A model generated the notes under the pieces. The model worked only from the letters and a program-made list of their open reading frames with translations. It made no database searches and was not told the origin of the DNA. The translations under genes were made by a program, and so were the position numbers. Below, one piece after another: positions 2,959 to 41,552 of a stretch of DNA of 64,000 nt. Every line of letters begins with the position of its first letter. Positions within the stretch are counted from its first letter, which is position 1. This DNA is from a virus. The stretch covers positions 29,022 through 93,021 of the IMG/VR virus record IMGVR_UViG_3300037722_001025; one strand, 5' to 3'.

Positions 2959-2993
2959 AAAAAGAGGTCAGAGTTGGTGTACTCTGACCTCTT
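2959..2993 (-). terminator. Rho-independent terminator
   Basis: 13-bp perfect stem AAGAGGTCAGAGT/ACTCTGACCTCTT ending in a T run on the minus strand, downstream of the 3020-3682 gene. Confidence 0.75.
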
Positions 2994-3019
2994 ACATTCA
3001 TGAGTTGCAAGTTAAATAC

Positions 3020-3682: not shown

Positions 3683-3740
3683 AAAGCACTTCCTTTCTTA
3701 GATAGTTGTTGGGGTTAATAGAATACCGACAGAAAAATGA

Positions 3741-4016: not shown

Positions 4017-4160
4017 GTTGGCTCCTTTGGGGTAAATGCAAGTTTATGTTTCTAACTGCCTACATATTTACTATATCACAGAATTGCAGAAAAAAAAGAA
4101 AAAAATGCAATAAACGTTGATTTTTTTAAAAGGGTCTAAAATCTCTATGATTTCAGATAC

Positions 4161-4844
4161 TTAGAGGTCCTGATCTTCTTCCAAGGCAATAATTTTATGC
4201 AATTGGATATTTAGGACAACATCTTCCAATCGATATTTATCTATAAGGAGAACTAATTCCTTAGCTGTGATAGTTCCACCTTCCATCGGAGAGAAAGCAA
4301 ACCGAGCTTTGCACCCTAAAACCTGTAATTGTTGTTTATACCATATTGCTCTATCCATATCATAAAGACTTCCAATAACAAACTTAAAATAATCTTTATG
4401 GGATAAGCACATTTCATGGTAGTGTTTTATAGGTAAGGAGTGTTTTTTCCCTAACTTTATATCCACCACAAAAGTTGCAAGACCGGCTAACCCGAGAGAC
4501 GGTGCCCGAAAAGGAACTTCACCACTTGTTTCGATTGATATATAAAAACCTTCAATTGCAAGAGCTCTGATCAACAAAGTCAACTTTTTCATGTCTTGTT
4601 GAAGTGGTTCCCCTCCAGTTATGGTGATGTTCTTATTTCCTAACGCTATCACTCTAACCATGATATCATGAATACTCATATCTGTTCCTGATGCAGGGGA
4701 ATTGGCGTATTTAGTGTCACAATAAGGACATGCTATGGTACACCCAGCAAATCTGATGAACGTACAAAAACTACCTTGATTTCTATGACATACTTCACCA
4801 TTGATACTGGGAAAAATACTGTAAACCTTCATTATATCTGGCAT
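4161..4844 (-). CDS. queE: 7-carboxy-7-deazaguanine synthase (radical SAM)
   Basis: SIF.SINGE, FIRFAGCTIACPYCDT, TGGEP, IETSG, C-terminal QLHK; adjacent to queD. Confidence 0.9.
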   Translation of the reverse strand: MPDIMKVYSIFPSINGEVCHRNQGSFCTFIRFAGCTIACPYCDTKYANSPASGTDMSIHDIMVRVIALGNKNITITGGEPLQQDMKKLTLLIRALAIEGFYISIETSGEVPFRAPSLGLAGLATFVVDIKLGKKHSLPIKHYHEMCLSHKDYFKFVIGSLYDMDRAIWYKQQLQVLGCKARFAFSPMEGGTITAKELVLLIDKYRLEDVVLNIQLHKIIALEEDQDL

Positions 4845-4846
4845 CA

Positions 4847-5221
4847 CTACACCTCCCCATTCCATTCAGCAAAAGAGCCAGGGGATTCATACAGTCGAAC
4901 TCTTCGGAGAATAACTTCCGGATAACGTCCATTTAAACCATTTTTAAGATGTTCAGCAATGTTAACCAACATGAGTTCTGCTGTGGGATTAGAGTAGATT
5001 TCATTCAGATACCGATGATCCAACGCATCTATAACCAAAGCATAGACCATCTTTTTGAGGACCATAAAATCTAAAACCATTCCAGAATCTTCTTGAACAG
5101 GTCCCCAAACTTCTACTTCGAGAGTCCATTGGTGACCATGTAGATTCGCACAATGACCATCATAATTGGGTAATCTGTGGGCCGCATCAAAGGTGAAAGA
5201 TTTGCATACTGATAGGTTCAT
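4847..5221 (-). CDS. queD: 6-carboxy-5,6,7,8-tetrahydropterin synthase
   Basis: FDAAHRL, CANLHGH, GMVLDF, LDHRYLN, NPTAE, LYESP. Confidence 0.95.
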   Translation of the reverse strand: MNLSVCKSFTFDAAHRLPNYDGHCANLHGHQWTLEVEVWGPVQEDSGMVLDFMVLKKMVYALVIDALDHRYLNEIYSNPTAELMLVNIAEHLKNGLNGRYPEVILRRVRLYESPGSFAEWNGEV

Positions 5222-12548: not shown

Positions 12549-12734
12549 TCATCTCCTTTGGTTGATAGCTTGAATTTTCTCTTCCTCTTCCAGAAATTTA
12601 ACTATTGCCATTTTAGTGAAAGCAGCCTGTGTGATATTCAACCTTTTACACTGATCATTGATGCGATCCTTCAAGTGACTGTCCATCCGAACGTACAATA
12701 CCTTGTTTGAATCTTCGGGAAAAGTGGTTGCCAT
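12549..12734 (-). CDS. Ribbon-helix-helix DNA-binding protein
   Basis: KVLYVRMDSHLKDRI...LNITQAAFTKMAIVKFLE RHH pattern; first gene after promoter 12773-12802. Confidence 0.7.
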   Translation of the reverse strand: MATTFPEDSNKVLYVRMDSHLKDRINDQCKRLNITQAAFTKMAIVKFLEEEEKIQAINQRR

Positions 12735-16038: not shown

Positions 16039-16908
16039 TTATGTAGCCCTTCGGTTCTTGTGTTCGAAGGCTTTCGTAATCGCCGGCTGAATTTCGATGC
16101 GGCGCAGTTCTGACTTGATTTCATGGGTAGCATATTGGGTAGCTACACTATAGAACATCCAGCGATTCAGCTCACCGCTCTTGAGAGCAGTGGGGAGAAT
16201 CAGGGAAGTGCTGGCTTCCGGAAGAGCTTCGATCTTTTCACGTTCGGGTTGAGAGAACGGAAGCTCGGCCCAGAGTTCCTCGTATTGATTCGGGAGCATC
16301 TTTTCTTCGGCCCATTCACGCCACAGCCCGGTCTGTTCGGAGAACTTGTTCATACCGTTGGTGATAGTTGCAGAGAGTTCATTCGGATCGAGGGATACAA
16401 GATGACGTTTTTTGAAGGAGTCGAAAGTCTGACCGACTTTCAGACCATTCGAACAGACGAGACGGAAAGCTCCGAAAGCTCCGCTGTATTTCCAACCCAG
16501 ATCATATGAGCTGAAAACGTCGATGGTGGGGTTGACAAGATCATGGACTTTCGGATTGATGTCGAACAGAACTTCCGCAAACTTTGCCTCGACTCGCAGT
16601 TTGCCCCCGTCAGACAGAAGCTGGACGCTGATGGTGGGCTTGCCGAATTCAGGAAGTTTGTTGGCTGCTTCTTCGACCAGGTGAATCACTTCTTCATGCA
16701 GAACAGGTTGATAGGCGCTGGTGCAGACGTTGAATGCTGAACCAGTGTTCTGGTCAACAATCGCAAAGCGATCAGGAATCCGATTCGCACTGCTGGGACG
16801 ACGACCGTACCAGAGGGGTTCGAGAACGACGTTGGGAAACACTAGATTGTACCTGGTTTTCACGTCCTCACGAATTTCTTTGACTTCCTCAGGCGTTCTT
16901 TCTTTCAT
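16039..16908 (-). CDS. DUF932 family early protein
   Basis: SAYQPVLHEE, GAFRLVCSNGL; GAGGAGG RBS; directly after a conserved promoter. Confidence 0.8.
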   Translation of the reverse strand: MKERTPEEVKEIREDVKTRYNLVFPNVVLEPLWYGRRPSSANRIPDRFAIVDQNTGSAFNVCTSAYQPVLHEEVIHLVEEAANKLPEFGKPTISVQLLSDGGKLRVEAKFAEVLFDINPKVHDLVNPTIDVFSSYDLGWKYSGAFGAFRLVCSNGLKVGQTFDSFKKRHLVSLDPNELSATITNGMNKFSEQTGLWREWAEEKMLPNQYEELWAELPFSQPEREKIEALPEASTSLILPTALKSGELNRWMFYSVATQYATHEIKSELRRIEIQPAITKAFEHKNRRAT

Positions 16909-16960
16909 GTTGCCTCCTCTCCCTTTTTCTCGGGATCGATTAGTGTTTGCTGCTATGATA

Positions 16961-16990
16961 ATTATATATGACCAATAGCAGTTTGCAAGC
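16961..16990 (-). promoter_or_regulatory. Conserved phage sigma70-like promoter
   Basis: GCTTGCAA-N16-TATAAT. Confidence 0.75.
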
Positions 16991-18090
16991 AAAATAATTA
17001 TTTTTTATCTTTTATTTTCCTTTTACCACTGAATTGTCTCGGGTGTCTCCCGAAAAAGGTTTTATCTTTCCAAGGTTTTATTTTCTTTAAAGTGGAATGA
17101 ATTTCTTTCTTGGGGGAAAATTTTTCTTTTGTTGACATAAAAAAGAAAAATTTTTTATATTTCCTTTGGTAGCAAAGGGTGCAAATGTATCCAGGACTAG
17201 GATCAACATCGTCATCAAAAGCACCTTTAACATGAATGTCAGCCCAGTTAGTGCAGCCTAAAACTTCACACCTGAAACCTTCTTCTTCACCGTTAACAAT
17301 TCTAAGAATTTCAAGGCTCATAACTTAATCCTTTCATAATCTAATTTGTTCGGAGCCTCAGTTGAAACACAAGTAATAGCAGAGTATAGCTTGATACTAT
17401 GGAATAACGTCCTGACTGCGGTAGAAGCTCAAAAATATTTGGTTCGTTGTTTACTTGACACATAATAATATAGATGATCCCAAGGATCATCTTCGTATTG
17501 GAAAGATTTCTGTTTGGGCAAAATCTTATCAATAGGCTTTTTAGAATTAATTTCTTTTCGGCAAGCACCACACGATTTATTAATCTTGATACCGTGTTTA
17601 CATGTAGGTATGAATTTGGACATAAGGTTATCTCCTCAATATTCATTCTTGAAAAATTTTAATTCCTCGTGTATTAAGATTACTCCATCTTCATCGATTA
17701 AGGCAAAGAAGGTACCAGCCATGCATTCACAAACAAATATTGGGTAATCAGTGGAATGCTCAAGGATTTCTTCCGTCTTTAGTCCCTCTATGGAAGACAG
17801 TTTTTGGATACCATCATCCATATTATCCTGATTTTCACTGAACAGAGTAGCAGAACTATCATCATTTATGCTGAATCCAGCTTTCCAATTTAGAAAATCA
17901 AGTATTTCTTTTTTCATGGTTTCACCTCAAGGTAGAGATACTTAGGAGTATGAAAATCACACCTACCAATAAAGTCAAGGGGTTTGTCGAATTTGTAATC
18001 ATTAGTATACCGATTATAAAACTTACTCCTTTTATAAAATTCATTATGTATCCTATAAAGTAAGGGGTAGATTTCTCTACCCCTTACTGA

Positions 18091-18792
18091 TTACTTAATT
18101 TGAGTTTTCCCACCGTTGGGACCAGCAAGTGGTCTGGAGATATTCACCTTCTTACCTGCTTCAACTCCTGCTCGGTGAGCCTCGTAACTCCCGGTCAGTT
18201 TCACTCCTCGACCGCGTCGAAGATTGGGAAATTGTTGTTGAACGAAAGTGGATAACCCTTGATTTTTGATGACCATCAGGGCTGATCCAGCTTCATCGAA
18301 AGAAGCATTTCGACGGTCATAAAGATCCTTCATGCGGCGACCAATCTCGTTGACCATCGCATAGGCGAAAGTGTCCCTGTCAGCTTTTTTGGAGAATTTG
18401 TGATTTGCCTGCATCCCGACAGACCGGCGCAGATATTGGAAGAAAAAGACGGTGATTTCGATATCCGTCTTGGTACCGCAGTACATGAGAACCCAGGGTT
18501 TAGTTCGTTGAACAACCTTGACATCGAAAGCTTCTGAAATGACAAGAGCGAGGGATCCTTCCCAATTCACAGGTGCCTGTTTGTTCATGTCCACATCGAT
18601 TCGGGAGAACATATCTTTAGACTTGCCAGCTCTGAGGTCAGCAAAATCGATGCTGTATTTTGCCATCAGTTTGGCAGCCATTGCATTGGCAGCCTCACGT
18701 TCACCTGAGAGACCATTGTTGCTGTCTTTCCCAAGTTCCATGAGCTTGAGAATCTTGTCAACCATTGCTTTTTGTTCAGTGGAAAGTGCCAT
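18091..18792 (-). CDS. DUF2786-domain early protein
   Basis: DKILKLMELG....GEREAANAMAAKLMAKYSI; C-terminal AG.EAGKKVNI. Confidence 0.75.
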   Translation of the reverse strand: MALSTEQKAMVDKILKLMELGKDSNNGLSGEREAANAMAAKLMAKYSIDFADLRAGKSKDMFSRIDVDMNKQAPVNWEGSLALVISEAFDVKVVQRTKPWVLMYCGTKTDIEITVFFFQYLRRSVGMQANHKFSKKADRDTFAYAMVNEIGRRMKDLYDRRNASFDEAGSALMVIKNQGLSTFVQQQFPNLRRGRGVKLTGSYEAHRAGVEAGKKVNISRPLAGPNGGKTQIK

Positions 18793-19005
18793 TTCTTTTC
18801 TCCTTAAATGGAAGTCCTGCATTTAGAGGGTCTGTTGCAACGGGAACAAGGGTGGGCCTTCGTGGCGTTGTAGATGAGGATCCCTTTCTCGGGGTTCAGT
18901 TTGAATTGAGGGCAAAACTGCTTGAATTTCTCGTCAGGGGTGTAGGTCTTTTTAATCAGACCACCCAAGGCTTTAAATGGCTTGTTCATCAAAACCTCCA
19001 GGAAG

Positions 19006-19049: not shown

Positions 19050-19802
19050 TCAGATAAGTTCGAAGTGGATTTTACCGTCAGCTTCAATCTTCTTGCACTT
19101 GTCGGCGCGATTTTTGATCAACCAGGCAATGTGGCTTTTGACACGACTGACGGTAGTTTCGGTGTCTTCAGCGTGCTTTGTGAGGGTCTTGTGAGATTCC
19201 AGAGACACATCGATTTTGCCGTTCTGCATCGTGAGGTAAGATTGGGAGAATTTGCTGACGGGGCCAGTTTTCGGACGAGCCGCTCGGGCAGTACCGCCGG
19301 AAGCAGAACTGGACTTCTTGCCCTGGGGGGCCTGGGCTTTCCGATGCTCGGTCAAAGTTTTGCAGGCTTCAGCACAGTCCTTGAACTGCTTGACGCAATC
19401 CTGGCAGTAGTCGGAATTCAGATCGAACGAGCCGAAGATTGCCGGGTCACATGCGTCGGGGTGTGATTCAGCGAGAACCTTGACGGCTTCAGCGACCGCT
19501 TTTTCTTTTTCAGCATCAGCGGCGCCGACTTTTCCAGCTTCTTCTGCCACGATCTGAGCATCTTTGGCGAGAGCGGCCGCCTCTTCTGCGAGAGCAGTGG
19601 CATCTTTGGCGAGAGCAGTACCAGCACCGTTCATTTCAACGACTCGACGTTCTTCGTTTTGCCGACGTTCTTCAGCGGCGTCCTGTTTCAATTCCTCCTG
19701 GTATTTCTCTTCGTCACTTTTCAGAGCGACGGGATTGGGGGTTTGGGACTTCTGATCTTTCTCAGCGGAACGACGTTGGGAAGCTGAAGTTCTTTTTGCC
19801 AT
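19050..19802 (-). CDS. Early protein: coiled coil, Cys cluster and C-terminal winged-HTH-like domain (paralogue of 28573-29067)
   Basis: Ala/Glu/Lys-rich coiled coil, C..FG...CQDC...C...C, then SKF...QNGKID..LE...TETTVSRVKSH. Confidence 0.7.
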   Translation of the reverse strand: MAKRTSASQRRSAEKDQKSQTPNPVALKSDEEKYQEELKQDAAEERRQNEERRVVEMNGAGTALAKDATALAEEAAALAKDAQIVAEEAGKVGAADAEKEKAVAEAVKVLAESHPDACDPAIFGSFDLNSDYCQDCVKQFKDCAEACKTLTEHRKAQAPQGKKSSSASGGTARAARPKTGPVSKFSQSYLTMQNGKIDVSLESHKTLTKHAEDTETTVSRVKSHIAWLIKNRADKCKKIEADGKIHFELI

Positions 19803-26087: not shown

Positions 26088-27138
26088 GGACATGTTGGTA
26101 TGTTCTCAATGCGGAAACACCGAGTTTATTATAACCATAGAGGATAAGGTATTCATAACCGATCTCCTTTTCACCTCTGATAAGAAAAAAGAGATCAGAG
26201 AGGTGGTAGTGGTCACCTGATCAAAATGCAACAGAGAGGAGGATATTGCGGAAGACGGAGAATTGAAGAATTCCTTTCTTGCTAGGATTTAAGAAAATGT
26301 GAGAACAAACAGGGGAACAAGTAGAAGGAGGAATCCACAGGAAAATAAAAAAATTTCAAAACAAACACTCAAACAACCTAGTATACCTACCTTCTTGTAC
26401 TACCCCTGTATGCAAGAGATGAGACTAGAGTATAAGTATACCTATGGGTGGTAAGGTAGTAAGGTATGGGTACTTAGGATATCAAGGCTTTATTGATGGA
26501 TACCAAGGCTTAAATTCTTAACAGGCTTCGACAGGTATCTAATGGAAACACTGGAATTTTCTTCAACAGGTGCTCCTGCCTCCACATATTACATTCGTTA
26601 CGCGCCTACCTGAGGAATAATCTCACATTCGGGGCTATGCGGTCACTCAAGGATATTCGGTAGCGGCTCCTAGGAAGGAGAACGGATATCACACATTCGG
26701 GCGGTCATCGGGACCCTCGGAGCCGCCTGGAGTCCTCCAAGGAGCCACCACCCATTTATATAACATGGAGGTCTCCAGGCGGTGCCTTGGCGGTCAGAAG
26801 GAAGGAGCTATCCTTACACGTTGCTTCTTACATACTCTCAGAGACTTGTCAGACAGGTGGCACCTTGGAGGTCAGGAGGAAGGAGGAGTCCAAAGGAAAA
26901 CCCGGCCTACTGCACCGAGTTCCTTATAGGATATCAGATCAGAGGTCTATCTCAAAGAACGAGGTGCATTCCTCATCCTCTTCAACTTCTTTCAGCTCAG
27001 GGACAGGGGCATAAACAGGGACTCGGTATTCCTCACTTTGCTCACGTTCCTGACGAAAGCGTTTATTCATCTCATCATAGAAGGAACCCGGCACAGGCGT
27101 ACCATCTTCGAATGTAGTAGGGATGTCAGAATAGTCGG

Positions 27139-27354
27139 TCATGACGGGATTCCTTTCTTCTGATTTCTTTGCTCTTCCCGAGCCATGAACTGCATGGTAT
27201 CAAGAGCATCTTGTTTGTCATCGGTGTAGTAGGTGCGATCTTCTTGGTATTTACCGTTAACATACACCTTGATGGAATGTTCATCAAATTCTGTATCATA
27301 GTGGTATAGAAACCTCACATTACCGACAACAATCTTTGCTTTCGTAGAAGCCAT
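27139..27354 (-). CDS. Small hypothetical early protein (MASTKAK...)
   Basis: AAGGAG RBS inside the 43-bp repeat. Confidence 0.6.
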   Translation of the reverse strand: MASTKAKIVVGNVRFLYHYDTEFDEHSIKVYVNGKYQEDRTYYTDDKQDALDTMQFMAREEQRNQKKGIPS

Positions 27355-27642
27355 AACGTTCTCCTTAGGAAAGAGTGATCCGGTGGAAGTGACCTCCCGT
27401 CGTGATTTGTACATACTACATTTCACCTTCCTGTAATTTCATTTATACTCCTCAATAAAAGTGTAGCAGATCGGACAGCACAACCCAAAGGAACGAATGC
27501 TAAGCGGTGGACGTATAAGCTGATCGCGCTTGGTAAACGTTTTACAATTAGGGCAGGTAACGGAGTCCTCGTTCGCGTTATCTGAATCGATCGGTAATTT
27601 AGAAGCCATAACGTTCTCCTTAAGAAAGAGTGATCCGGTGGA
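27345..27642. repeat. 43-bp direct repeat (27345-27387 and 27600-27642, 1 mismatch) containing RBS and start codon
   Basis: Minus strand TCCACCGGATCACTCTTTC(C/T)TAAGGAGAACGTTATGGCTTCTA occurs twice. Confidence 0.9.
27439..27609 (-). CDS. 56-aa zinc-finger protein (below the ORF-track cutoff)
   Basis: MASKLP...TCPNCK...CCPIC; RBS in the second repeat copy. Confidence 0.55.
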   Translation of the reverse strand: MASKLPIDSDNANEDSVTCPNCKTFTKRDQLIRPPLSIRSFGLCCPICYTFIEEYK

Positions 27643-28036
27643 TGTTCAAGTAACAGACATAAGACAGACCCATCAAGGCAACAACTTCATTGTACTGTTT
27701 GACAGTACGTGGGTTAACTTTACCATGTTTGCAACGCAACAGAGCTTTCGAGTAATTGGGACATGCGGAGCAGTTCATGAGGGATTCTCCTTGCTGTTGA
27801 TAACTTCATGATAAATTTGAGCAGCCACAGCGTAAGAACAATTGCCTAGGCGCATGATGAATTGAATCTTTAGATTTCTTAGATCTATGGCTTCAACAAA
27901 TCTTTTGTCTTCATCTGTCATTTGTCAACTCCTTGTCAGTGTTCACGGTGAAAACTTCTTTTACAGTATCAGTATAGCAAAGGTATTTGCTCCTGTCACA
28001 AATAAGTTGATTCCACTGCATTTTTATTCGCCAGCT

Positions 28037-28262
28037 GGCATTCGGAGCCATGCGGTGTAGGTGGGAAGGTTTCACATTCCCACGGGCGGCTCCAGGCATT
28101 CGGAAGGACACGGCCACATTCCCAACCTCACATTCCCACGGACGGCTCCACATTCCCACGGGCACGGCTGGTGGACCCGAGGCTCACATTCCCACGGGCA
28201 TCTCCTCGGGTCCACCGCTCCACACGGCTCCTCCTAGGGTGGCGGCTCCTCGGAGGACATTC
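28037..28262. repeat. GC-rich block of CACATTCCCACGG / CGGCTCC repeats with hairpins
   Basis: CACATTCCCACGG at 28073, 28129, 28149, 28185 (partial at 28115); CGGCTCC x4; 13-bp stem 28170-28182/28204-28216. Confidence 0.85.
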
Positions 28263-28523
28263 AGGCGTTGGCGGTGTAGAGGTACAGTATTCAAAGGAAT
28301 GGCCCCGGAGCAGGCCCGGGGCGAGGGAAAGGGTTCTAGGTGAGGCACTTCAGCAGTGCCAGCAATACGACGAATGCAGATATATGATTAATCATATATC
28401 ACGTCATATCAGTGAAGCAAGAAAAACAAAAAGAGCAGTCTGCAACGAGCACAGAACGAAACAAACAAGCTTGTTTTTGAGAGATTCTTTGCATGTAGTG
28501 ACTTGCATAATTATCATCTTTCT

Positions 28524-28563
28524 ATGCTTGCAAGCTTGATATGTGAATCAAGCTTGCAAGCAT
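28524..28563. repeat. Perfect 17-bp inverted repeat just downstream of the GG/CC-free gene
   Basis: ATGCTTGCAAGCTTGAT-ATGTGA-ATCAAGCTTGCAAGCAT. Confidence 0.85.
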
Positions 28564-28572
28564 CAGATTGTT

Positions 28573-29067
28573 TTATTCAGCGACGACGAACTTGAAACGC
28601 TTGTTATCAGAAGTATCAGTCACACGTTTTGCATGTGTACAGTTTTTCATGATGTAAACGCAGTGTGACTTGATACGTGCTTCTGAACATTCTGTAATTT
28701 TCATCAGCTCTTTCATGCTGTGAAATTCTTCAAGCGCGCGATCAATACGATAATTCTGTCGAGTGCTTTCGAGAAGTCTGCAAAACTTCGAAGTCGTTGA
28801 AGTCGACGCAGATTGATTTCTTTTCACTTGTGCATTGTCAATCATGCGTTGCTCGATAGCTTGCACTTGCTCTTCACGAGTCATGCAAGCAAACTGTTCA
28901 GCGTCGATGTTGAGCAGTTGAGCATGATTTTTTCTGTCGAGTGCTTGAGTATCATAAGCTTGATTCATCTTGAGTGCTTCACTGTGAATCAGATACGAAG
29001 TGATCTTGCAGTGAGCTGAAAGCTTGACAGTCTTCTGAGTGTTGTTCTTTTTAGATTGCTTTTTCAT
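28573..29067 (-). CDS. Gly/Pro/Trp-free early protein with a C-terminal winged-HTH-like domain (164 aa from MKKQSKK)
   Basis: Own promoter at 29128-29157, GAGAGAG-type RBS, clear C-terminal similarity to 19050-19802. Confidence 0.8.
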   Translation of the reverse strand: MKKQSKKNNTQKTVKLSAHCKITSYLIHSEALKMNQAYDTQALDRKNHAQLLNIDAEQFACMTREEQVQAIEQRMIDNAQVKRNQSASTSTTSKFCRLLESTRQNYRIDRALEEFHSMKELMKITECSEARIKSHCVYIMKNCTHAKRVTDTSDNKRFKFVVAE

Positions 29068-29127
29068 TAACAATCTTCTTTCTCTCTCATTAATGAGAGC
29101 TGATTGAAGCATCATTGCTTCATTATC

Positions 29128-29157
29128 AATATAGCATAGTGCAAGCTATGTGCAAGC
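29128..29157 (-). promoter_or_regulatory. Conserved phage sigma70-like promoter (first promoter of the early arm)
   Basis: GCTTGCAC-N16-TATATT with TG extension. Confidence 0.75.
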
Positions 29158-29200
29158 AAACAAATCATTTTTTTCAGAAAAAGAGCAAATCGATTTAAGA

Positions 29201-29306
29201 GCTGTTTTTGTGCGAAATAGAGCTATTTCTAGAAAAGCATAGCAACTCAAGCACATATCACTAATGAGAGCTTAAATTGCTGTTTTTGTGCGAAATAGAG
29301 CTATTT
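29201..29306. repeat. 28-bp perfect direct repeat (29201-29228, 29279-29306) with internal palindrome
   Basis: GCTGTTTTTGTGCGAAATAGAGCTATTT x2; AAATAG-AG-CTATTT palindrome. Confidence 0.9.
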
Positions 29307-29497
29307 TGTGATTTGAGATAGAATCTTTTTTTCACTGCTGAGATCAATCGTAGTTATCATATACAAGCAGATCACGGGATTATATTTGCTTAATAAATAT
29401 AAAAATGTAATGATTTCAAGTACTTAGCCCCCCTCGATCTATCTTCATTAGAAGATTTTTTGATGTGAACGTAGGACCCAACCATAATTTTTTCCAT

Positions 29498-29581
29498 ATT
29501 TACGGAAGTTGGTCACCTTTCCTCTTAAAAGCTCAGTAATTATCATAAATTTACAGAAGTTGGTCACCTTTCCTCTTAAAA
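29498..29581. repeat. 33-bp direct repeat (29498-29530, 29549-29581, 1 mismatch) upstream of terS
   Basis: ATTTAC(G/A)GAAGTTGGTCACCTTTCCTCTTAAAA x2. Confidence 0.9.
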
Positions 29582-29803
29582 TCGCTGATATCTGCCAACT
29601 GTTATCTGGTATCTGAAATCTGCCTCCCTATACAGGTACAAAAATATCGCCGACTCAGATTTCGAATTTATAGCAAAGGTAAGTGTATCGCCTCGAAGCC
29701 CCAACTGTAGGCATTAGCAGAATTCCCAGGTAAAAAGAGCCAAAATAAATATGCTTGACATACATTACAGAACCATAATAGGATGAACCAAAAGGAGGAT
29801 AAA

Positions 29804-30370
29804 ATGGCACTCAAAGAGCCCGAAGAATCTAAAGAGTATCACAAACCAGTAATCGACATTGCTAACAATTCGATGATGAAAGGTGAAGTACGAGAAGGGA
29901 AGCAACTGATAGCTTGGGATTCCATCCAAGATTGTAATACCGAAAGATGCCCCATAGGTAAAACCTGCTTGTATGCGAGGATATCGAAGGAGAAGTGCGC
30001 TTTGCAGGTAGGATACCTGCAAAACCTCACTGATACGATATTCTCTACCTACAGATACCTTGATGAAACCTCGATGTTTAAGATAGGTATGCACCTCATA
30101 CCTTTGTACTCCCAGCTTTGTCGCCAGAAGATAGTTGAAAAATCAGTAGGACGATTAGCATATGAGGACGAGAAGGGACGAACTCATATCCACCCAATAT
30201 ATAAAGAGATACGTGAGACCATGAAGGTCATAACTATCTTGTGGCGGGAAATGGGATTCCCAGTAGCAATGAATCCTGACGTGCCTACAGGTAAAGCAGG
30301 ATTCGGGGATGCCTCACATTATGAGACGATATCTCGGGAAGCTGACAATAAGAGGAACATTGTCCGATAA
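29804..30370 (+). CDS. Probable terminase small subunit
   Basis: First gene of the structural arm; AAGGAGG RBS; HPIYKEIRE...LWREMGF resembles the P27-type TerS C-terminus; positional call. Confidence 0.55.
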   Translation: MALKEPEESKEYHKPVIDIANNSMMKGEVREGKQLIAWDSIQDCNTERCPIGKTCLYARISKEKCALQVGYLQNLTDTIFSTYRYLDETSMFKIGMHLIPLYSQLCRQKIVEKSVGRLAYEDEKGRTHIHPIYKEIRETMKVITILWREMGFPVAMNPDVPTGKAGFGDASHYETISREADNKRNIVR

Positions 30371-30635
30371 CCTCTACACAGGAGAGTTAGAAAATGCGAC
30401 TGGACATCCGGGAAGGGTTTACTGAGGAATGCCTGAAACATGTTGTAGTAGACACTTTGACAAAGCAGATAATTTGGGATGTAGTTGCCGCAGATGATTC
30501 CTTAGGGATGTACCTGATACATAACGATGAAGAAAAGACTATTGAACTGGGGGAATACCGAACAGTTATGAACCCAAACATCAAGATCGTACCTATAAAA
30601 GAAATAATCAACGGTATTTGGATAGGAGGAGAATA

Positions 30636-31073
30636 ATGAGCTTTCCTAGATATCCTGAACGGTGCTTGCGGGGGAATTCAAGATGTCAGCCCTATAGCCA
30701 GATCGCTTCAAACGTAGGACTTGTAGAGGATCAAAGCTTTTTCTGTTGCGGTAAGCATGATGGAACTATGGCACCTGTAGCCCAGGACAAATATACACTT
30801 TGCTTCAAAGGACCTCATCGGGACGACATGGTTTTCATGGATCGTAGGGACTTGGTAGATCAAGCTCATGTAATCCTTGCTGCTCTCAGCTTCATAGAGC
30901 TAGATATGATGGAAGAGAAAGATGAGGAAATAACCCATCTGAAGTCCGTGATATCGGGACAGCGGATAGCAATATCCTATGCCACTATCCTAAATAACGG
31001 ACTTTCAAACAACGAGCCTGTAGATAGGATTCTGAGAGAAGTATACCTTAAATACCAAGGAGAAGACGAATGA
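30636..31073 (+). CDS. Hypothetical protein
   Basis: ORF with AGGAG RBS before MSFPRY. Confidence 0.5.
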   Translation: MSFPRYPERCLRGNSRCQPYSQIASNVGLVEDQSFFCCGKHDGTMAPVAQDKYTLCFKGPHRDDMVFMDRRDLVDQAHVILAALSFIELDMMEEKDEEITHLKSVISGQRIAISYATILNNGLSNNEPVDRILREVYLKYQGEDE

Positions 31074-31636
31074 AGAAAATCTTGCTGTTATTCTCGGTAT
31101 TTCTGTTCTTGACTTCCAGCTGTTTTGCAGAAGGGTATAACCGCGAGGAGTTCGGAGGATGGATTGATGCTGATGGTGACGGACAAGATACCAGAGAGGA
31201 AGTGCTGATAGAGGAATCTCTTATTCCTTTGACTTATTCCTTAAGAAAAGCATGGGAACTCTTCCCTATATTCGGGCTGTTCTATTGTGAACTGACAGGA
31301 CAATATGAGACGGATCCAGGACTTCTGGACATCGATCACCGAGTTCCTCTCAAAGAAGCCTATGAATCAGGAGCCAAGAACTGGCCGAAAGAAAAGAAAG
31401 TTGCCTACGCTAATTATCTAGATAACCCCAATCACCTTGTAGCTGTTATGGCAGGAGCTAATCGATCAAAAGGATCGAAGGACGTAGCTTTGTGGTTACC
31501 TATCGTAAATAAGACGGAATACATGGAGAAGTGGATAGAAATTAAGGAAGAATGGAATCTCTGTTATGACCCTGCCGAAGAAATCGTCTTATCAAATCAT
31601 GGATTTACGGTAACTAACATCTGCTCTGATGAGTGA
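31070..31636 (+). CDS. Secreted HNH-type nuclease (DUF1524-like)
   Basis: Signal peptide; YNREEFGGWID.DGDG.DTREEVL, DIDHRVPLKEA..SGA..W, N..A....NRSKGSK...WLP. Confidence 0.85.
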   Translation: MKKILLLFSVFLFLTSSCFAEGYNREEFGGWIDADGDGQDTREEVLIEESLIPLTYSLRKAWELFPIFGLFYCELTGQYETDPGLLDIDHRVPLKEAYESGAKNWPKEKKVAYANYLDNPNHLVAVMAGANRSKGSKDVALWLPIVNKTEYMEKWIEIKEEWNLCYDPAEEIVLSNHGFTVTNICSDE

Positions 31637-31857
31637 GGATAAATCATGATACGAATAATCCTGGCATATTTCGGTTATGCTAAAATTCCTGTAAAAGTTG
31701 TTCAGCTCTCAATCATGCAAGAGGAATATATTAAAAAATTAATAGATTTGAGGGATTCAGAAGATTGGAAACGACTATTTGAATCCCATTTAGAAGGTCA
31801 AAAGACACTAACTCACTTTCTGAGGTCTTGTAGATTATTAGATAGGGGTAGTAAGAA

Positions 31858-33786
31858 ATGAAACCAGTCCTGCTACGCAGAAAACCAGCACCTATCACAC
31901 AGGAAGAGGTATATGATCCTTCTCTGTATGATCCTGATAAATTACCCCCATATCAGATATATGAACCTTTGGACTATCGTGATGGTCCTGAGGGCTTTAT
32001 CAAGTGGTGTGAAGATAAGGTCTGTATCCCGATCTATCCTGAAGGAAGTGATATTGCCCAATGGGTCAGTATTAAGGATTTGAGTCCTGACATCCACCCT
32101 AAATCAGGAAAAAGCTACGATCATATCTGGCAGATGCAGAAGGTAGAGATTCGTAAGTGCCTGAGAATGGTCAACGGGCGTTTTATTTATCGTCTGATCA
32201 TACTGAGCTGGATGCGGGGGGAAGGAAAGTCACTCCTAGCTTGCCTTATTCAGTTATGGAAGTTTTTTAACTGGCCAAAGCAACAGATTGTCCTCGGAGC
32301 GAATAGTAAAGACCAGATTCGTTTCGTCCATTATGATATTATGAGGGACATCATCAAAAACAGTCCAACCCTGCTTGCAATATGTGGGGATAGGAACGTT
32401 CAGGAGAAAGAAATACGCTTGCGGGATGCTTCAGGTAACGTTTCGTCAGTTTTGCGTCCCATATCGTCTTTTTCGGGTATTGTGTCGAATATTACAGGAT
32501 ACACGTTTTCTGAGATATTTGACATGAAGAATCCGAAGTTTTTTACACAGTTAGACGGGTCTATAAGGAACATTCCGAACGCTTTAGGGGTTATTGACTC
32601 TACAGTTTCCCCAAAAACCCACGTTTTATATAAAATGTACCAATCTTTTGTAGCTAGGCGCACTAAAACGCTCTTTTTCTCGTACCGATGCTCCAAAGAG
32701 GCTTCAATTGCTGATTATTGGAATCCAAATATGGACCAACAGCAGTTGGACGACTATAAAGAGAAATTCCCTCTAGGGGACTTCGAAAAGTATTTCATGA
32801 ATGTCTGGGGAAGTAATGCCCAGCAAGTTTTTACCGCAGAAATGCTTGAAGGGATGAATTATATAGGAATAAATAATAAAGTCACCCCTTACAGCGATAT
32901 TAGAGAACACATTGCAAAGAAACTCAAGCTCAAACAGTCGGTAGAGGATCTAGTTCAGAGAGGAATACCTTGTGATTTTGAGACAGAACTTAAGGAAGTC
33001 AATTTACTGCAATCCCAATTGGTACCCGTAGAAAACATTTACCGACTGCGAGATAAGCATGGAATATCTTGTTCCGCTACTCTTGCAGACCTAGATAAAT
33101 TGGGGGAAATCTATGACACTAACTGGGCCGTCCTCGCAGGAATCGACCGAGCAGATCCACTCAAAAAAGACCGCACGTCGGCGAGAACTATTGTTACGAT
33201 TACGGCAAAAGGTCTACCTGGAAGTAAATCAAATATCTTGGCTGCTGACGGTGGTAACCCTCAGTATATGTATATACTCCTTAATATCGTTCATGTTTCT
33301 GATAGTTTACTTGAGGGAATTAAAGAGGCGATTCTGGAAGCCCATGAAACGTTCGACGGAGTAGATGCAATATGTGGGGAGCGGTGGGGTATCTGGGACA
33401 TGGCTCCTTGGTGTGATGAGCATGGAATTGTGTTTGAACCTATACACCCTTCTTATGATAAGCAGAAAGCCGCGTTTGCAGAGCTTCATGGGGCGATCAG
33501 TACGGGACGATTCAAGACACCACCCATAGCTGTATGGGGAAGCAAGAATGAAGACATTTTGAAGGAAGAAGCAGAAATCTTCTATCATGATGATGAGAAA
33601 AGATGGTTCGGATCACCCGAAAAGATGGAGAAAAATGGAGTACAGGACGATGTTATGTTTGCTGAAGGATGGGGCATCTATGGAGGCCGACTATTCAAAG
33701 CTGACACTTTTAAAGAACGGAACCACAAGATATTTTTTGGTACTATGGTCAGAAACAAAGCACTCCTCACTTCAAATATGAAATAG
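31858..33786 (+). CDS. terL: Terminase large subunit
   Basis: Walker A MRGEGKS, GANSKDQ, nuclease AGIDRA and QDD; upstream of portal. Confidence 0.85.
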   Translation: MKPVLLRRKPAPITQEEVYDPSLYDPDKLPPYQIYEPLDYRDGPEGFIKWCEDKVCIPIYPEGSDIAQWVSIKDLSPDIHPKSGKSYDHIWQMQKVEIRKCLRMVNGRFIYRLIILSWMRGEGKSLLACLIQLWKFFNWPKQQIVLGANSKDQIRFVHYDIMRDIIKNSPTLLAICGDRNVQEKEIRLRDASGNVSSVLRPISSFSGIVSNITGYTFSEIFDMKNPKFFTQLDGSIRNIPNALGVIDSTVSPKTHVLYKMYQSFVARRTKTLFFSYRCSKEASIADYWNPNMDQQQLDDYKEKFPLGDFEKYFMNVWGSNAQQVFTAEMLEGMNYIGINNKVTPYSDIREHIAKKLKLKQSVEDLVQRGIPCDFETELKEVNLLQSQLVPVENIYRLRDKHGISCSATLADLDKLGEIYDTNWAVLAGIDRADPLKKDRTSARTIVTITAKGLPGSKSNILAADGGNPQYMYILLNIVHVSDSLLEGIKEAILEAHETFDGVDAICGERWGIWDMAPWCDEHGIVFEPIHPSYDKQKAAFAELHGAISTGRFKTPPIAVWGSKNEDILKEEAEIFYHDDEKRWFGSPEKMEKNGVQDDVMFAEGWGIYGGRLFKADTFKERNHKIFFGTMVRNKALLTSNMK

Positions 33787-33794: not shown

Positions 33795-34247
33795 ATGAAC
33801 TTTTGTTGGGTTAAGAAAAAAGTATTACTTCTTATGAAGGAAGAAGGATGGAAGAAGTTTCCAAATGAAACTGGTGGTATTTTGCTAGGTTATCGAAAAG
33901 ATCGTTCAGCCGTAGTGACTCAATTAGTTGGTCCTGGTCCTTTAGCCAAACATGAACAGTTTGGATTTACTCCAGATTATGGATTCCATATGTCAGAAGT
34001 GGATAGAATATTTGTAGAATCAGAAGGAACTGAAATTTATTTGGGTGATTGGCATACCCATCCTAAAGGATCTACAGAATTAAGTGATTTGGATATAAAA
34101 TGCCTTGATACGGTAGCAAAATATAAAGAGGCTTATAATCCCAATCCTCTGATGCTCGTTTTAGGTGGGAATCTAGATCGTTTGGGTGTGTATGGTTACT
34201 CTAAAGAACGAAAAGTGACAGGTTTACCATATGTTCTTTTCAGTTAA
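33795..34247 (+). CDS. JAB/MPN (Mov34) domain metallo-isopeptidase
   Basis: ETGGILLG ... GPGP ... GDWHTHP....LS..D JAMM motif intact. Confidence 0.9.
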   Translation: MNFCWVKKKVLLLMKEEGWKKFPNETGGILLGYRKDRSAVVTQLVGPGPLAKHEQFGFTPDYGFHMSEVDRIFVESEGTEIYLGDWHTHPKGSTELSDLDIKCLDTVAKYKEAYNPNPLMLVLGGNLDRLGVYGYSKERKVTGLPYVLFS

Positions 34248-37512: not shown

Positions 37513-38202
37513 ATGAAGGAATTGGGTGGAAGCATTCCAGGTCTTGTCCGTAATGCAGAAGGGCCGGGAATCAAACGGTTGTTTTATTCCCAGAGGGACA
37601 TTGCCCTCATTCTCAACAAAACTCTGGCTCCCGGTTATGGGGTTCTCAAGGCCGGCACCGTCCTCGCTCAGAACATTTCTGCTGCCGGCAACAAAGGTCT
37701 TCTCGTTCCCTATGTTCCGGTCTACGGGGACATGGTTTTCGGCACTGATGCTGCTCTCGGTGTCGCTCCCATGGTGCTCAACGGATCGTCTGCCAAGGTG
37801 TATGTTAGCCTTCAGGATTCTTACAAGTTTGTCGTGGGAGACCAGCTCTATTTCGAGAACACTACCGGCGACGGCTTGGTCGATTGTGGTGTCATTACTG
37901 CAATCACCCGTACTGATGCCCGCTATGCGGAAATCGACTGCGGCGCCTACACTGCGACCAACGCCACCATCGCTAAATCGGCGTATGTCTTCGTGAAGGC
38001 CGGAACGACTCCGTTCTCCCTCGCCAAGTACATTCTCGACAAAGATGTTGACACCGGCAAAGGGGAAGATGCAGCTGGAGGCCTTGCTTCCTGCGTTTAT
38101 TCCAATGCCATGCTGTACTCTGCATCTCTGATCAATTGCACCTCCGAAGCCATTACGTCCCTCGGTGCTGTTGTTGACGGCCAGTTCACCATTCTCAAGT
38201 AA
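37513..38202 (+). CDS. Head decoration protein
   Basis: GVLKAGTVLA motif; between protease and major capsid gene. Confidence 0.7.
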   Translation: MKELGGSIPGLVRNAEGPGIKRLFYSQRDIALILNKTLAPGYGVLKAGTVLAQNISAAGNKGLLVPYVPVYGDMVFGTDAALGVAPMVLNGSSAKVYVSLQDSYKFVVGDQLYFENTTGDGLVDCGVITAITRTDARYAEIDCGAYTATNATIAKSAYVFVKAGTTPFSLAKYILDKDVDTGKGEDAAGGLASCVYSNAMLYSASLINCTSEAITSLGAVVDGQFTILK

Positions 38203-38249
38203 CCAAGGCCGTCAACAGACGGTTAAACCCTTTTCAGGAGGATAAATAA

Positions 38250-39470
38250 ATGAAAGGTATCGAGGGAATCCCGGCATTGCACCTGTCGACCCTTAACAAG
38301 CTGATCTCAAAGCTTGATAAGGTGCCGGCTAACTTTTTCAGCAACCTCTTTTCCGCAGTACAGTATCCATCTGACACGATCAAATGGGAACTGGAATATG
38401 CGTCGGGCGGAATGACTCCGTTCGTAGCACCTGGTACCATCGCTCCGACTGTCGGAATCGATGGAATCAGTCAAGCTGAAGCGCGTTCAGCTTACTGGAA
38501 AGAAAAAATGTACTTCGACGAGGAATTCCTCAACAACATGCGTGAGCCTGGTACTACAGCAACTTATGCGACGGCCGAACGCAAACTTGCTAAAGGGGTG
38601 AGGAAACTCCAATATCGTTGTAATCGGCGCCGTGAGTGGATGTGTTCCCAGATGGTGACCCAAGGATCACTCAACTACGCCACCAATAGTGGCACCAAGT
38701 TTGCTATCAGCTACGGCATCCCTTCGACCCACATCGTCACTCTGGATCAAGCAACCCGCAACTGGAAAACGGGAACTTCCCGCAACCCCGTCGAGGACAT
38801 CTTCGACGCTAAACAGGTTCTTTCGACGGACGCCTCAGTTGTTCCCGAATATGCCATGATGAACAGCGAACTGCTGAAGGTACTTATTCTAGACAGCAAA
38901 ATTCAGGCCCTCCTGGAGAAATCTGCTTTCGGTAACGGCGACCTCTTCTCCAATCCCAATCAGGTCCTCGCCTCTCTGCTCGGAATCGGCAAGCTCACCG
39001 TTTATGATGAGCTGTATGAGGTTCAATCTGGCCTGATCACCACTCCTGGTAGCACCACCATTTATGTCGAAGATTCTACCGATTTCGAAGTAGGCGGAGT
39101 TGCCCGCTTCGTCAATATGGTGCTTTACAACGTCTGGGAAGATGAAACTATCACAGGGGTTGATCCTGTCGCTTCTACTATCACTGTTGCTGCTCAGCCG
39201 AGTGCTACTTTCGTTGGCGGCCGGGACAAGGTCGTTATGCGGAAGAAATTCATTGCCGACAACGAGTTCCATCTGTTCGCTACCAAGGCCGGCGGAGAGC
39301 CCATCGCCGAGTTCATGGAAGCTCCTTACGGCATCGATCGGCGCTGGGGCTTCTTCGCCGACACCAAGCTGGAGTGGGATCCTGAAGGCATCTGGCTGCG
39401 TGTCCAGGATAAAGGTCTTCCCGTTCTGTATCATCCTGATACGACCTTCAAGCTCATCTGCTTCTCGTAA
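38250..39470 (+). CDS. Major capsid protein (lambda gpE-like)
   Basis: MTPFVAP, RRREWMCSQ, WDPEG....LPV motifs; GC-biased codons of a highly expressed gene. Confidence 0.88.
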   Translation: MKGIEGIPALHLSTLNKLISKLDKVPANFFSNLFSAVQYPSDTIKWELEYASGGMTPFVAPGTIAPTVGIDGISQAEARSAYWKEKMYFDEEFLNNMREPGTTATYATAERKLAKGVRKLQYRCNRRREWMCSQMVTQGSLNYATNSGTKFAISYGIPSTHIVTLDQATRNWKTGTSRNPVEDIFDAKQVLSTDASVVPEYAMMNSELLKVLILDSKIQALLEKSAFGNGDLFSNPNQVLASLLGIGKLTVYDELYEVQSGLITTPGSTTIYVEDSTDFEVGGVARFVNMVLYNVWEDETITGVDPVASTITVAAQPSATFVGGRDKVVMRKKFIADNEFHLFATKAGGEPIAEFMEAPYGIDRRWGFFADTKLEWDPEGIWLRVQDKGLPVLYHPDTTFKLICFS

Positions 39471-39523
39471 TGTTACTGGATGGGGAGGGTAACACCTCCC
39501 ACCACTAAACTCTTGGAGGAAAA

Positions 39524-40192
39524 ATGTCTGAACATAATAAAAGGGAAGCAATCAACAGGTTGCAGGCGGCTGTTGCTGAATTGCAAGCTCTTATTCCTGG
39601 ACTTGATCTGGGAGAATTTGCAGTTCTGAATGGGGTTGTTGCTGGAACCGTCACTGCTGGTAAAGCTCTTGTTGTAGGGGATAATAAGGAACTGGACACC
39701 CTCGATCTTACCGAGTTGGTGTTAGGTGGCACCCCTGTCACGTCTTCTGCTGATGAAGTGAATGCCTTGACTGGGATGATAGCAAAGGTTGGTGAATTGA
39801 ACCTTTTGGCTGATACGGTGGCCGCTTTCTCTTTTACTCCTGCTGCAGGAGCTGCAAATGTTTGTGAAGTTACGATTCAGGCGAAGGATGCTCAAGATGT
39901 CAACATGACCCGACCAGTACTGTTCTTGCTTCATCTTTCTGATGATGCCACAGGGCTGGGGTTGACTGCTACGGATGCTTCTGGTACTGTTACTGCAAAA
40001 GCTGCCAGTGGTACTGATTTTGGCGTACTCACCGCCAAAAAGGCACTGCTTGCTCAGACCAAAGCAGATGGTTCTTTCATTCTGGAAATCACCGACACGG
40101 CAAAAACTAGTTTTTACGTCATTGCAACACCTCTTGTCGGTTGTGCTCCTAGTGGTAGTGCCGCTCTCATTACTGCTGATTATGGTGCTTGA
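39524..40192 (+). CDS. Putative head fibre / structural protein
   Basis: GVVAGTVTAGKALVV...VTSSADEVNAL fibre-like repeat; follows the major capsid gene. Confidence 0.55.
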   Translation: MSEHNKREAINRLQAAVAELQALIPGLDLGEFAVLNGVVAGTVTAGKALVVGDNKELDTLDLTELVLGGTPVTSSADEVNALTGMIAKVGELNLLADTVAAFSFTPAAGAANVCEVTIQAKDAQDVNMTRPVLFLLHLSDDATGLGLTATDASGTVTAKAASGTDFGVLTAKKALLAQTKADGSFILEITDTAKTSFYVIATPLVGCAPSGSAALITADYGA

Positions 40193-40474
40193 GAATAATT
40201 CATTTAATTTGTAATCCCAAAAGAAGGAGAAAAGGATGAAAGTCAAACTTCTGGTAAATCTAAAAATTGCCGACAGTTCCATCATTGGTTCAGGATCTAC
40301 CTTTGAAGGGGAAAAACTGGAAGATTTTCCAGATTACATTCGAACTAACCTGAATAATCCTAAAGTGGTCAAGATTCTTCAAGGAAGTTTGTCTATAGAA
40401 AGTGAACTGAAAAAACCAGTTGAAAACCCGAAAAAAGCACCGGCTCTTGCTCGTAGGGCAAAATAAGGAGCATT

Positions 40475-40921
40475 ATGGCTGCCTCTACTGACATCATAAA
40501 TATGGTGAAAGTCTTGTTATCTTCCTCGTCAACATTGTTGACAAGTGATGGTTACGAGGCTGCTGTCCAAAGTGCTGAATCTGAGTTGGGTTGGAGTCTT
40601 CCGGTAACCAACCCAACTCAGATTCAATGGATGGCAAAAAGAACACTCCGACATTGCTTTTTCATTCTTTGGACCGCTTCGGCCCAAAAATTTAAATATA
40701 AGCAGGTAAATCTTCAACAGCGATTTGATCACTATGATAAGCTCATCAGACATATGGATTGGGAGTACGGTAAAGCTCAGGACAGTGACGCCAGTTTGTT
40801 TGCGAACGTCGAGATATACAAGCAATTTGGAACAGCGGTAGGGGCAGGATTTCGATATGATAAAATTGGAAATGATCTTACTTATGAGGATCTGACAAAG
40901 TTTATAAATTCTGAGGTATAA
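40475..40921 (+). CDS. Putative head-tail adaptor
   Basis: Size and gene order. Confidence 0.5.
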   Translation: MAASTDIINMVKVLLSSSSTLLTSDGYEAAVQSAESELGWSLPVTNPTQIQWMAKRTLRHCFFILWTASAQKFKYKQVNLQQRFDHYDKLIRHMDWEYGKAQDSDASLFANVEIYKQFGTAVGAGFRYDKIGNDLTYEDLTKFINSEV

Positions 40922-40922
40922 A

Positions 40923-41552
40923 ATGGCTAGCATTGGTGCAGATATTAAAGAGGTTATGGATGAACTAGGAGTAACCGCTACAATTCTGCGGTCACCAACT
41001 AATATTACGGAAAAAATCACAACTGAAGCAGATTATGTATCCTCAACTAATCCTTTCATGCAGGAACATCATACAAATATAGGTTTGAATTACAATACTC
41101 AAGTTGTAACAGGTGATTTGCTTCAAATCCTCAATGATTATCATCTAGTAATTGCTAAAGTTCCAGATATGTTTGAAGGGGAAATGGTAGAATTTACTGC
41201 CGCCTTATATAAATGTAATGTTTCTGGAGCTGTTCTTTTAATTCCTGTACAAACCCAAGATCCAGATACTTTTAAACTCACCTCTACTTGGAATGTAAGA
41301 AAAACGGGAGTAAGAGGTGTATTACACCAATATAAAAGAAGTGCCCCACTAGAACCAGAAACTTCTGCTGGTAGAAACCCGATTTTTGAATTAGAAATGT
41401 TTGTTCCTGCAAGTTATGGAGCTGTTATAAATGACCGAGTTTATATTTCAGCCACAGAATATTTCAGAATTTTGGATATAGAAAAATACAAATTACCAGG
41501 AATTCATACCCTAACTCTTGTTCAAGATGATAGAGTAGTTTATACACCATAA
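40923..41552 (+). CDS. Putative head closure protein
   Basis: Beta-rich; gene order. Confidence 0.5.
   Translation: MASIGADIKEVMDELGVTATILRSPTNITEKITTEADYVSSTNPFMQEHHTNIGLNYNTQVVTGDLLQILNDYHLVIAKVPDMFEGEMVEFTAALYKCNVSGAVLLIPVQTQDPDTFKLTSTWNVRKTGVRGVLHQYKRSAPLEPETSAGRNPIFELEMFVPASYGAVINDRVYISATEYFRILDIEKYKLPGIHTLTLVQDDRVVYTP

Follow-up and report, generated by a model that had tools for sequence, protein, structure and literature searches.

Organization of the Word-Free Island

The window analysed in this work was a stretch of viral DNA of 64,000 nucleotides, which corresponded to bases 29022–93021 of the 93,021-bp record IMGVR_UViG_3300037722_001025; this uncultured phage is designated G000 in the comparisons below. 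Within the window, a segment hereafter called the island or leader cassette (28361–29375, no strand) contained no GG and no CC. The 1015 bp without these dinucleotides, noticed in the original prediction, were confirmed by direct count, and the gap between the bordering GG at 28359–28360 and the GG at 29376 was 1017 bp. The G+C content of the island was 37.5% (A297, C181, G200, T337). Approximately 72 GG/CC were predicted from this composition, which gave a chance of zero of about e^-72. The next-longest GG/CC-free gap was 73 bp, whether the window or the complete 93,021-bp genome was considered, and a dinucleotide scan of the whole genome revealed no comparable gap in the other strand-symmetric dinucleotides. 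The island was single-copy in the genome, was located outside any long direct terminal repeat, and was positioned between the divergent leftward early genes and the rightward genes of packaging and structure. The ban operated at the DNA level, affecting both strands and coding as well as non-coding DNA, and the depletion was strand-symmetric and independent of the reading frame. For the islands of 11 genomes of the clade, the odds of GC, CA/TG and GG/CC were 1.89, 1.33 and 0.01, respectively. Because GC was over-used, G and C were retained inside the islands but never doubled.

The possibility of an assembly artefact, including the homopolymer collapse that the original prediction had named as a way to be wrong, was explored. 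The A and T runs of the island were intact, its open reading frame (ORF) was open, and an independent run (X2) had an identical island sequence with 0 differences. Hence, an artefact is an unlikely source of the island. Over 964 positions left of the island, a co-occurring strain in X2 had 21 differences, and it had none within the island. The doubled depth over 28146–29737 in X2 was considered as a sign of a terminal repeat and rejected, since two merged strains accounted for the doubling. The record itself was a closed assembly, though labelled linear, because the contig ends (genome 1–144 and 92896–93021) shared an overlap of 126 bp, preceded by 18 leading bases without a match and far from the island.

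The other elements ascribed to the unit in the original prediction were also recovered. The ORF at 28573–29067 on the minus strand encoded a protein of 164 aa that lacked Gly, Pro and Trp. The ribosome-binding site of this gene read GAGAGAG (29082–29088, minus strand, 14 nt before the ATG), a GG-free stand-in for the Shine–Dalgarno sequence, and AGGAG-type sites were used by other genes of this phage. Upstream lay an early promoter-like site of the form GCTTGCAC-N16-TATATT with two tandem GCTTGCAC copies (29127–29157, minus strand), which was a unique exact match; GCTTGCAC was confined to the island. The broader pattern GCTTGCAY-N16-TATNNT was common to the island and two early upstream regions (window 12549–12734 and 19050–19802), in keeping with the predicted copy of an early promoter. 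Judged by its sequence, the site resembled a sigma-70 promoter and may serve as a host-type early promoter. A fixed GG/CC inside the other early promoters was looked for and not seen; their cores were likewise GG/CC-free. A perfect 17-bp hairpin was located at 28524–28563 (no strand), 10 nt past the stop codon, and a role as a canonical intrinsic terminator was ruled out, as the sense strand had no U-tract. Two 35-nt direct repeats with 91% identity (29194–29306, no strand) lay upstream of the promoter and are possible operator sites. Rfam and tRNA scans of the region found nothing.

The 164-aa protein had no Pfam or PHROG family match. Its homologues in relatives were 14–53% identical and mostly likewise without Gly, Pro and Trp, and a C-terminal domain with an SRIKSH-type helix was conserved among them. 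The protein had long N-terminal helices and a C-terminal winged helix-turn-helix. In the AlphaFold model, the predicted local distance difference test (pLDDT) value exceeded 90 in the C-terminal domain, and the elements at this level were helices 94–111, 118–125 and 129–142 and strands 146–150 and 158–162. Foldseek returned weak matches to MarR/ArsR-type winged helices, with a best E-value of 0.015 and probabilities of 0.97–1.0. The product is thus predicted to be a winged-helix DNA-binding regulator. The genome encoded one paralogue that contained Gly and Pro, a 250-aa protein at 19050–19802 (minus strand) with the common winged-helix domain (phmmer E-value 4.7e-6; BLASTP 31% over 80 aa), and its gene was preceded by a copy of the island promoter type. 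Beside this ordinary paralogue, DUF2786/DUF7168 and DUF932 proteins were encoded at 18091–18822 and 16039–16992 (minus strand), a pair also conserved in the relative G006. A very acidic 67-aa early protein was encoded a few genes downstream of the island (26939–27142, minus strand) and is a possible candidate for a DNA mimic or an anti-restriction protein.

Borders of the Island

The edge of the island nearest the small terminase gene (terS) adjoined a conserved non-coding element of the form ...TGATTTCAAGTACTTA-G-CCCCCC-TCGATCTATCT (29405–29444, plus strand), which was found at the island edge in relatives and adjoined it in 13 genomes. The first CC after the island was the C-run itself in six of them (G001, G004, L005, L006, L060 and G033), and in the remaining genomes the island stopped at the first or second motif of the element. 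One IMG/VR contig (L069/L127) began exactly at the C-run, with GCCCCCCTCG, and another began 18 nt before its C-run. According to these sequence features, the element is probably the cohesive end site (cos). A second conserved non-coding motif, AGGNCC...CCATAATTTTTTCC (29472–29496, plus strand), followed the first at 30–50 nt in relatives. Two 33-nt direct repeats with 97% identity (29498–29581, plus strand) lay between the cos-like element and the terS-like gene; analogous duplicated motifs occurred in G025, G026, L013 and L060, and the repeats are possible binding sites of the small terminase. The terS-like protein p195 (29783–30370, plus strand) was encoded by the first gene of the packaging and structural block. 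It had no Pfam or PHROG family match and was conserved directly upstream of the large terminase (TerL) in all relatives. The position upstream of terS given in the original prediction therefore agreed with an island beside a conserved cos-like element. TerL itself (31858–33786, plus strand; phrog_9/phrog_2) served as the clade marker.

The far edge of the island adjoined a GG/CC-dense non-coding block of repeats and hairpins (28037–28340, no strand). The density reached 83 GG/CC in 400 bp, and the block included CACATTCCCACGG in four copies as well as a perfect stem of 13 bp. Analogous GG/CC-rich repeat blocks were present in G007, L006, L013, L055 and G005. The block was the most variable region between the two co-occurring strains, with 9 differences and an 18-bp deletion. 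A role of GCTGGTGG in this block as an Escherichia coli Chi site was considered, as it was oriented toward the presumed end, in the active orientation; it was rejected as probable chance because four copies per genome were at chance level and GCTGGTGG was missing in relatives.

Several other features were observed around the packaging genes. Four genes at 30394–31861, between the terS-like gene and TerL, occurred in G000 only, and one of them encoded a GmrSD_C/DUF1524-like HNH protein with a signal-peptide-like N-terminus; in relatives, TerL directly followed the terS-like gene. A JAB-like gene after TerL (33795–34247) was likewise confined to G000. The 20-mer GTAATGATTTCAAGYACTTA (29405–29424), the left half of the cos-like element, was also found in approximately 20 otherwise unrelated viral contigs without islands (L132–L152), often 100–260 bp from a contig end and with unrelated sequence beyond.

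Conservation of the Island among Relatives

The relatives were 78 loci retrieved by TerL; no cultured relatives were found by DNA or TerL protein search. Most relatives with enough upstream DNA had one GG/CC-free or near-free island upstream of the terS-like gene, and homologous islands occurred once per genome. At least 15 relatives, with TerL 47–75% identical, each had one island at the equivalent place. The islands were 664–1250 bp long in relatives and approximately 2.9 kb in G021. The gene of the 164-aa type pointed toward cos in L013, L018, L051, L055, L074 and G020. Islands recurred at TerL identities down to 47–53% while the proteins inside them were only 14–53% identical; therefore, the sequence comparison indicates that the island is upheld by selection and is no frozen inherited sequence. 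Relatives with normal GG/CC content had been named in the original prediction as evidence that would count against it, and the comparison failed to provide such a refutation.

The length of the tape measure was considered as a correlate of island length and rejected, as tape measures are long in the distant relatives G008 and G009, neither of which has a GG/CC island. Cos-adjacent runs without other words were observed in these two genomes, namely 2155 bp without AAGC/GCTT in G008 (26984–29137) and 3513 bp without ATGC/GCAT in G009 (37568–41079). Both runs were weaker than the GG-type islands, and word-free leaders may extend beyond GG-type words. In phage SSU5 (JQ965645), only a weak island for CAGG and CGGC was found, at 95.1–97.0 kb and away from the record end.

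Modification Genes and the Lineage-Specific Banned Word

The 7-deazaguanine system invoked in the original prediction was identified as a full set. G000 encoded FolE, QueD, QueE, QueC and DpdA (PF01227, PF01242, radical SAM, PF06508 and phrog_887), together with extra tailoring enzymes. Part of the operon, with the extra radical SAM protein, FolE, QueE and QueD, was located at 1260–5221 (minus strand) by Pfam and PHROG matches, and QueC and DpdA lay just upstream of the window. The Pfam TGT profile did not detect the DpdA of G000. Several HNH nucleases were also encoded, one of them within the deazaguanine operon.

The banned words were determined by a scan for extreme word-free runs of all 2–4-mers, and all nine DpdA-bearing genomes of the clade were compared, eight of them complete or near-complete and one (G003) 72% complete. 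All GG/CC were banned in G000, G001, G002, G004, G005, G007, G013, G025, G026 and G033. Among these, G000, G001, G002, G025 and G026 carried DpdA of group A (44–68% identical) and G033 had a singleton type; the contigs of G004, G005, G007 and G013 did not reach the DpdA region. Only CCA/TGG was banned in G003 and G020, which carried DpdA of group B (51% mutual identity, 35–39% to group A). Their GG/CC content was ordinary, and the longest stretch without CCA/TGG in either genome (644 and 771 bp) was at the island site. In G021, which had its own DpdA type, CCA/TGG was absent over 2940 bp and GGA/TCC over 2454 bp, with 14 other CC remaining. G006 had two N6/N4 DNA methylases in place of the deazaguanine operon of its relatives, one of them at a syntenic site between DnaB and the polymerase, and no deazaguanine genes in 60 kb; the banned words were GGC, GGG and GGT (GGB/VCC). 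In its island of approximately 2 kb, 110 of 111 CC steps were TCC, so only GGA was permitted. By TerL, G003 nested with G000 and G001 (71–73%) and G020 fell outside (55–58%). Because the two are apart, the narrower CCA/TGG ban arose twice, both times together with the group B type of DpdA. The sequences thus indicate that the banned word is lineage-specific and follows the DNA-modification module, which is the new observation here. Literature searches found no paper describing the trait.

The use of the banned words outside the islands was also explored. The GG/CC odds were 1.0–1.2 in eight of the nine DpdA genomes, so no depletion was seen, and the group B word CCA/TGG was at most mildly depleted (odds 1.04 in G003 and 0.90 in G020). 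In G006, the genome-wide odds were 0.81 for GG/CC, 0.55–0.60 for ACC, CCC and GCC, and 2.21 for TCC. Its banned word was thinned approximately two-fold genome-wide, and this held for each of the three codon phases and for either strand. A four-fold genome-wide preference for GGA/TCC over GGC, GGG and GGT, strand-symmetric and independent of frame, was found (L104–L107). Since G006 thins its word throughout the genome and eight of nine DpdA genomes do not deplete GG/CC, the banned word appears to be a genome-wide liability where deazaguanine is absent. Moreover, five complete DpdA phages with other terminases had no island, and phage CAjan had no island free of its motifs GA and GGC. Hence, DpdA alone does not require an island.

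Proposed Function of the Island

The island is tentatively interpreted as a first-ejected leader purged of a word resembling a protospacer adjacent motif (PAM), which 7-deazaguanine masks elsewhere. This reading is held with less than even confidence; a target motif of the phage's own modification enzyme is ranked second and a runway for the packaging nuclease third. The two models of the original prediction, PAM or recognition-site avoidance and a leader kept unmodified, both survive in this ranking, but in modified form, since some lineages ban CCA/TGG or GGB/VCC rather than all GG/CC.

Phages of the lambda cos type package the end away from terS last, and this end leaves the virion first. 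Because the island adjoins the cos-like element on the side away from terS, the kilobase may by analogy be a leader, located at the last-packaged tip of the virion DNA and hence the first to enter. The leader would carry the host-type early promoter and the winged-helix regulator gene. A DNA-scanning factor in the infected cell, presumably host-encoded and PAM-like in its specificity, would read a short word (here GG/CC) on either strand, and the leader would be kept free of it. Across the rest of the genome, the same word would be masked by 7-deazaguanine, though only partially. Early functions would presumably cover the DNA entering later, and the leader alone would form a vulnerable window. 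With each host spacer acquired in the leader, phages that had lost the corresponding PAM would take over until none was left, and this stepwise purge would proceed even at the cost of Gly, Pro and Trp.

The hostile-reader model accounts for the dinucleotide scale of the ban, for its lack of harm to the host should the word be a PAM, for the lineage variants, for the thinning in G006 and for the other DpdA phages that have no island. To our knowledge, effectors of clustered regularly interspaced short palindromic repeats (CRISPR) systems are the only host systems that read bare GG/CC without harm to the host. PAMs of this kind include CC in type I-F, CCN in types I-A and I-B, and NGG in type II-A. 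The variants among lineages (all GG/CC; CCA/TGG only; TGG and GGA; GGB only) are of the kind expected of PAMs. Furthermore, the thinning in G006, set against no GG/CC depletion in eight of nine DpdA genomes, is expected if modification relieves a genome-wide liability. The masking would be partial, as Cas9 cleavage drops by only 75% when the PAM contains dPreQ0; type I-F binding is less stable with 7-deazaguanine in the PAM (PMC10484667). New spacers come mainly from the free cos end that is injected first (Modell 2017, cited in PMC6546361). Sensitivity of T5 DNA to EcoRI and CRISPR is confined to the first-step segment (bioRxiv 10.1101/866236).

Several points weigh against a PAM-like reader. 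The first entry of the island depends on the analogy with lambda-type cos phages. G000 retains a GGG 50 bp from the presumed tip. The leader encodes a predicted DNA-binding regulator, which is no evident defence inhibitor and no recognisable anti-CRISPR protein. The only hint of a host was a related contig binned with an Ignavibacteriaceae metagenome-assembled genome, in which Cas1 was not found; this result is uninformative on host CRISPR. PAM depletion in phages, as Kupczok and Bollback reportedly described in 2014, is genome-wide and mild, not absolute. Moreover, the co-variation of the word with the DpdA subtype is predicted more directly by the own-motif alternative.

Alternative Explanations

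In that second explanation, which we regard as possible and place behind the PAM-like reader, the word corresponds to the motif that the phage's own modification enzyme targets (the DpdA subtype, or the methylases in G006), and the leader must stay unmodified. Type IV nucleases would then find nothing on the first DNA, or unaided host RNA polymerase and the regulator could work on it. The shift of the word with the module, from all GG/CC in group A and two singleton types to CCA/TGG in group B, in two lineages independent by TerL, and GGB with the methylases of G006, is what this explanation expects. Known DpdA motifs are equally short and include GG words (GA, GGC and GGT in CAjan; PMC10484667), and bacterial RNA polymerase is inhibited, chiefly at the initiation stage, on templates with 7-substituted 7-deazaguanine (PMC4838386). 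The ban, however, spans a whole gene and its flanks, whereas the cited inhibition acts at initiation, and the cores of the other early promoters are also GG/CC-free. The genome-wide thinning in G006 is unexpected unless it was caused by methyl-cytosine decay, and the leader product is no evident nuclease inhibitor. CAjan and the five other DpdA phages have no motif-free island, which speaks against the unmodified-leader model of the original prediction as a general rule.

The borders of the island bear on a third explanation, which is rather unlikely. The island would be a runway for the packaging nuclease, which would be armed when the head is nearly full and would cut at the first short word; if the last-packaged 0.7–3 kb were word-free, the cut would fall exactly at cos. 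The end of the island exactly at the C-run in six genomes, and elsewhere at the first or second motif of the element, fits such a cut, as does the contig that begins at GCCCCCCTCG. The island amounts to approximately 1–3% of the genome, similar to the headful imprecision established for P22 and SPP1. Any stray word would cost many virions, which accounts for a ban without exceptions; possession of the trait goes with the TerL clade rather than with DpdA, and no host factor is required. Against this, G003 has a different word although its TerL and terS-like proteins are 71% and 54% identical to those of G000, exceptions are tolerated as close as 294 bp from cos in G004, and a GG/CC-dense block lies directly at the far edge of the island. 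The runway also offers no explanation for the genome-wide thinning in G006, and we know of no precedent for a word-free runway of a packaging nuclease. A related proposal, which we consider a little more doubtful still, is a cos of negative design, in which the nuclease, armed in a nearly full head, would cut at the first word of 2–3 nt; the genome end would owe its uniqueness to that word being wholly missing from the last-packaged kilobase rather than to a long recognition sequence, and the last-packaged genes would be recoded to do without Gly, Pro and Trp.

It is improbable that a frequent-cutting nuclease of the phage destroys host DNA at the word while the leader, present meanwhile, is kept without it. 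The idea follows the proposal of Davison for T5 A1 and the first-step DNA (bioRxiv 10.1101/866236), modification would shield the rest of the genome, and several HNH nucleases are encoded, including the one within the deazaguanine operon. However, virion DNA would be modified in the leader as well, which makes the ban needless, the HNH genes near terS are inserts of G000 only, and no nuclease is conserved alongside the trait. A non-functional island, arising by chance, artefact or mutational decay such as CC-specific deamination of an exposed end, is effectively refuted. Although the G+C content of the islands is 3–12 points below that of the respective genomes, a gap of this kind has a chance of about e^-72, independent assemblies show the trait repeatedly, the ORF is uninterrupted and encodes a conserved domain, and GC is enriched while the deamination products (CT/AG and TC/GA) are not.

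Throughout a gene unit, a two-letter word is banned absolutely, at the cost of proteins built from 17 amino acids, which means that something reads the word with single-site consequences. Because the word shifts with the DNA-modification genes of the phage, the island reports from sequence alone an otherwise invisible specificity, which may be that of a PAM, of a DpdA or methylase motif, or of a nuclease. If the preferred reading of a PAM-like word is true, 7-deazaguanine would be linked to PAM masking, and the leader would represent a new way for phages to protect themselves in the first seconds of infection, when they are vulnerable. Should the word instead be the phage's own motif, DpdA specificities could be read from metagenomes via the islands. 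Either way, the winged-helix proteins without Gly, Pro and Trp and their ordinary paralogues form a natural experiment in protein recoding.

Comparison with Known Systems

The first-step DNA of T5 and BF23 is similar to the island in that a defined end segment carries the first-expressed genes and is naturally target-free (EcoRI in T5). In T5, non-coding repeats and palindromes, the injection stop signal, follow the first-step DNA (bioRxiv 10.1101/866236), and a GG/CC-dense block of repeats and hairpins adjoins the island here. The systems differ in several respects. The island comprises approximately 1% of the genome compared with 8% in T5, and it is single-copy rather than part of a long terminal repeat. 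It holds one small regulator gene, and no A1 or A2 homologues were found in Pfam and PHROG searches. Furthermore, the missing target here is a word of 2–3 nt whose absence is absolute and forces proteins without Gly, Pro and Trp, and two-step entry is a feature of T5.

CRISPR-driven PAM depletion resembles the present case in the strand-symmetric loss of a GG/CC-type word of 2–3 nt, and the free cos end that enters first is given as a preferred spacer source in PMC6546361, which cites Modell 2017. The loss is local and total here, whereas in phages at large it is said to be genome-wide and mild. The phage DpdA systems (GA, GGC and GGT in CAjan; GA in iggy) share the full gene set and the motif length with G000, GG motifs are known among them, and modification within a PAM protects partially (PMC10484667). 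They differ in that CAjan has no motif-free island, so the island is no general corollary of DpdA.

The leading end of T7, with gene 0.3 (Ocr), is a short segment with host promoters whose expression precedes exposure of the remaining genome, and the island would be comparable as a short leading segment with a host-type promoter. T7-type entry driven by transcription is not general in this clade, however, because the gene faces cos in several relatives. The products also differ in character: Ocr is an acidic DNA mimic, whereas the island product is predicted to be a basic DNA-binding protein.

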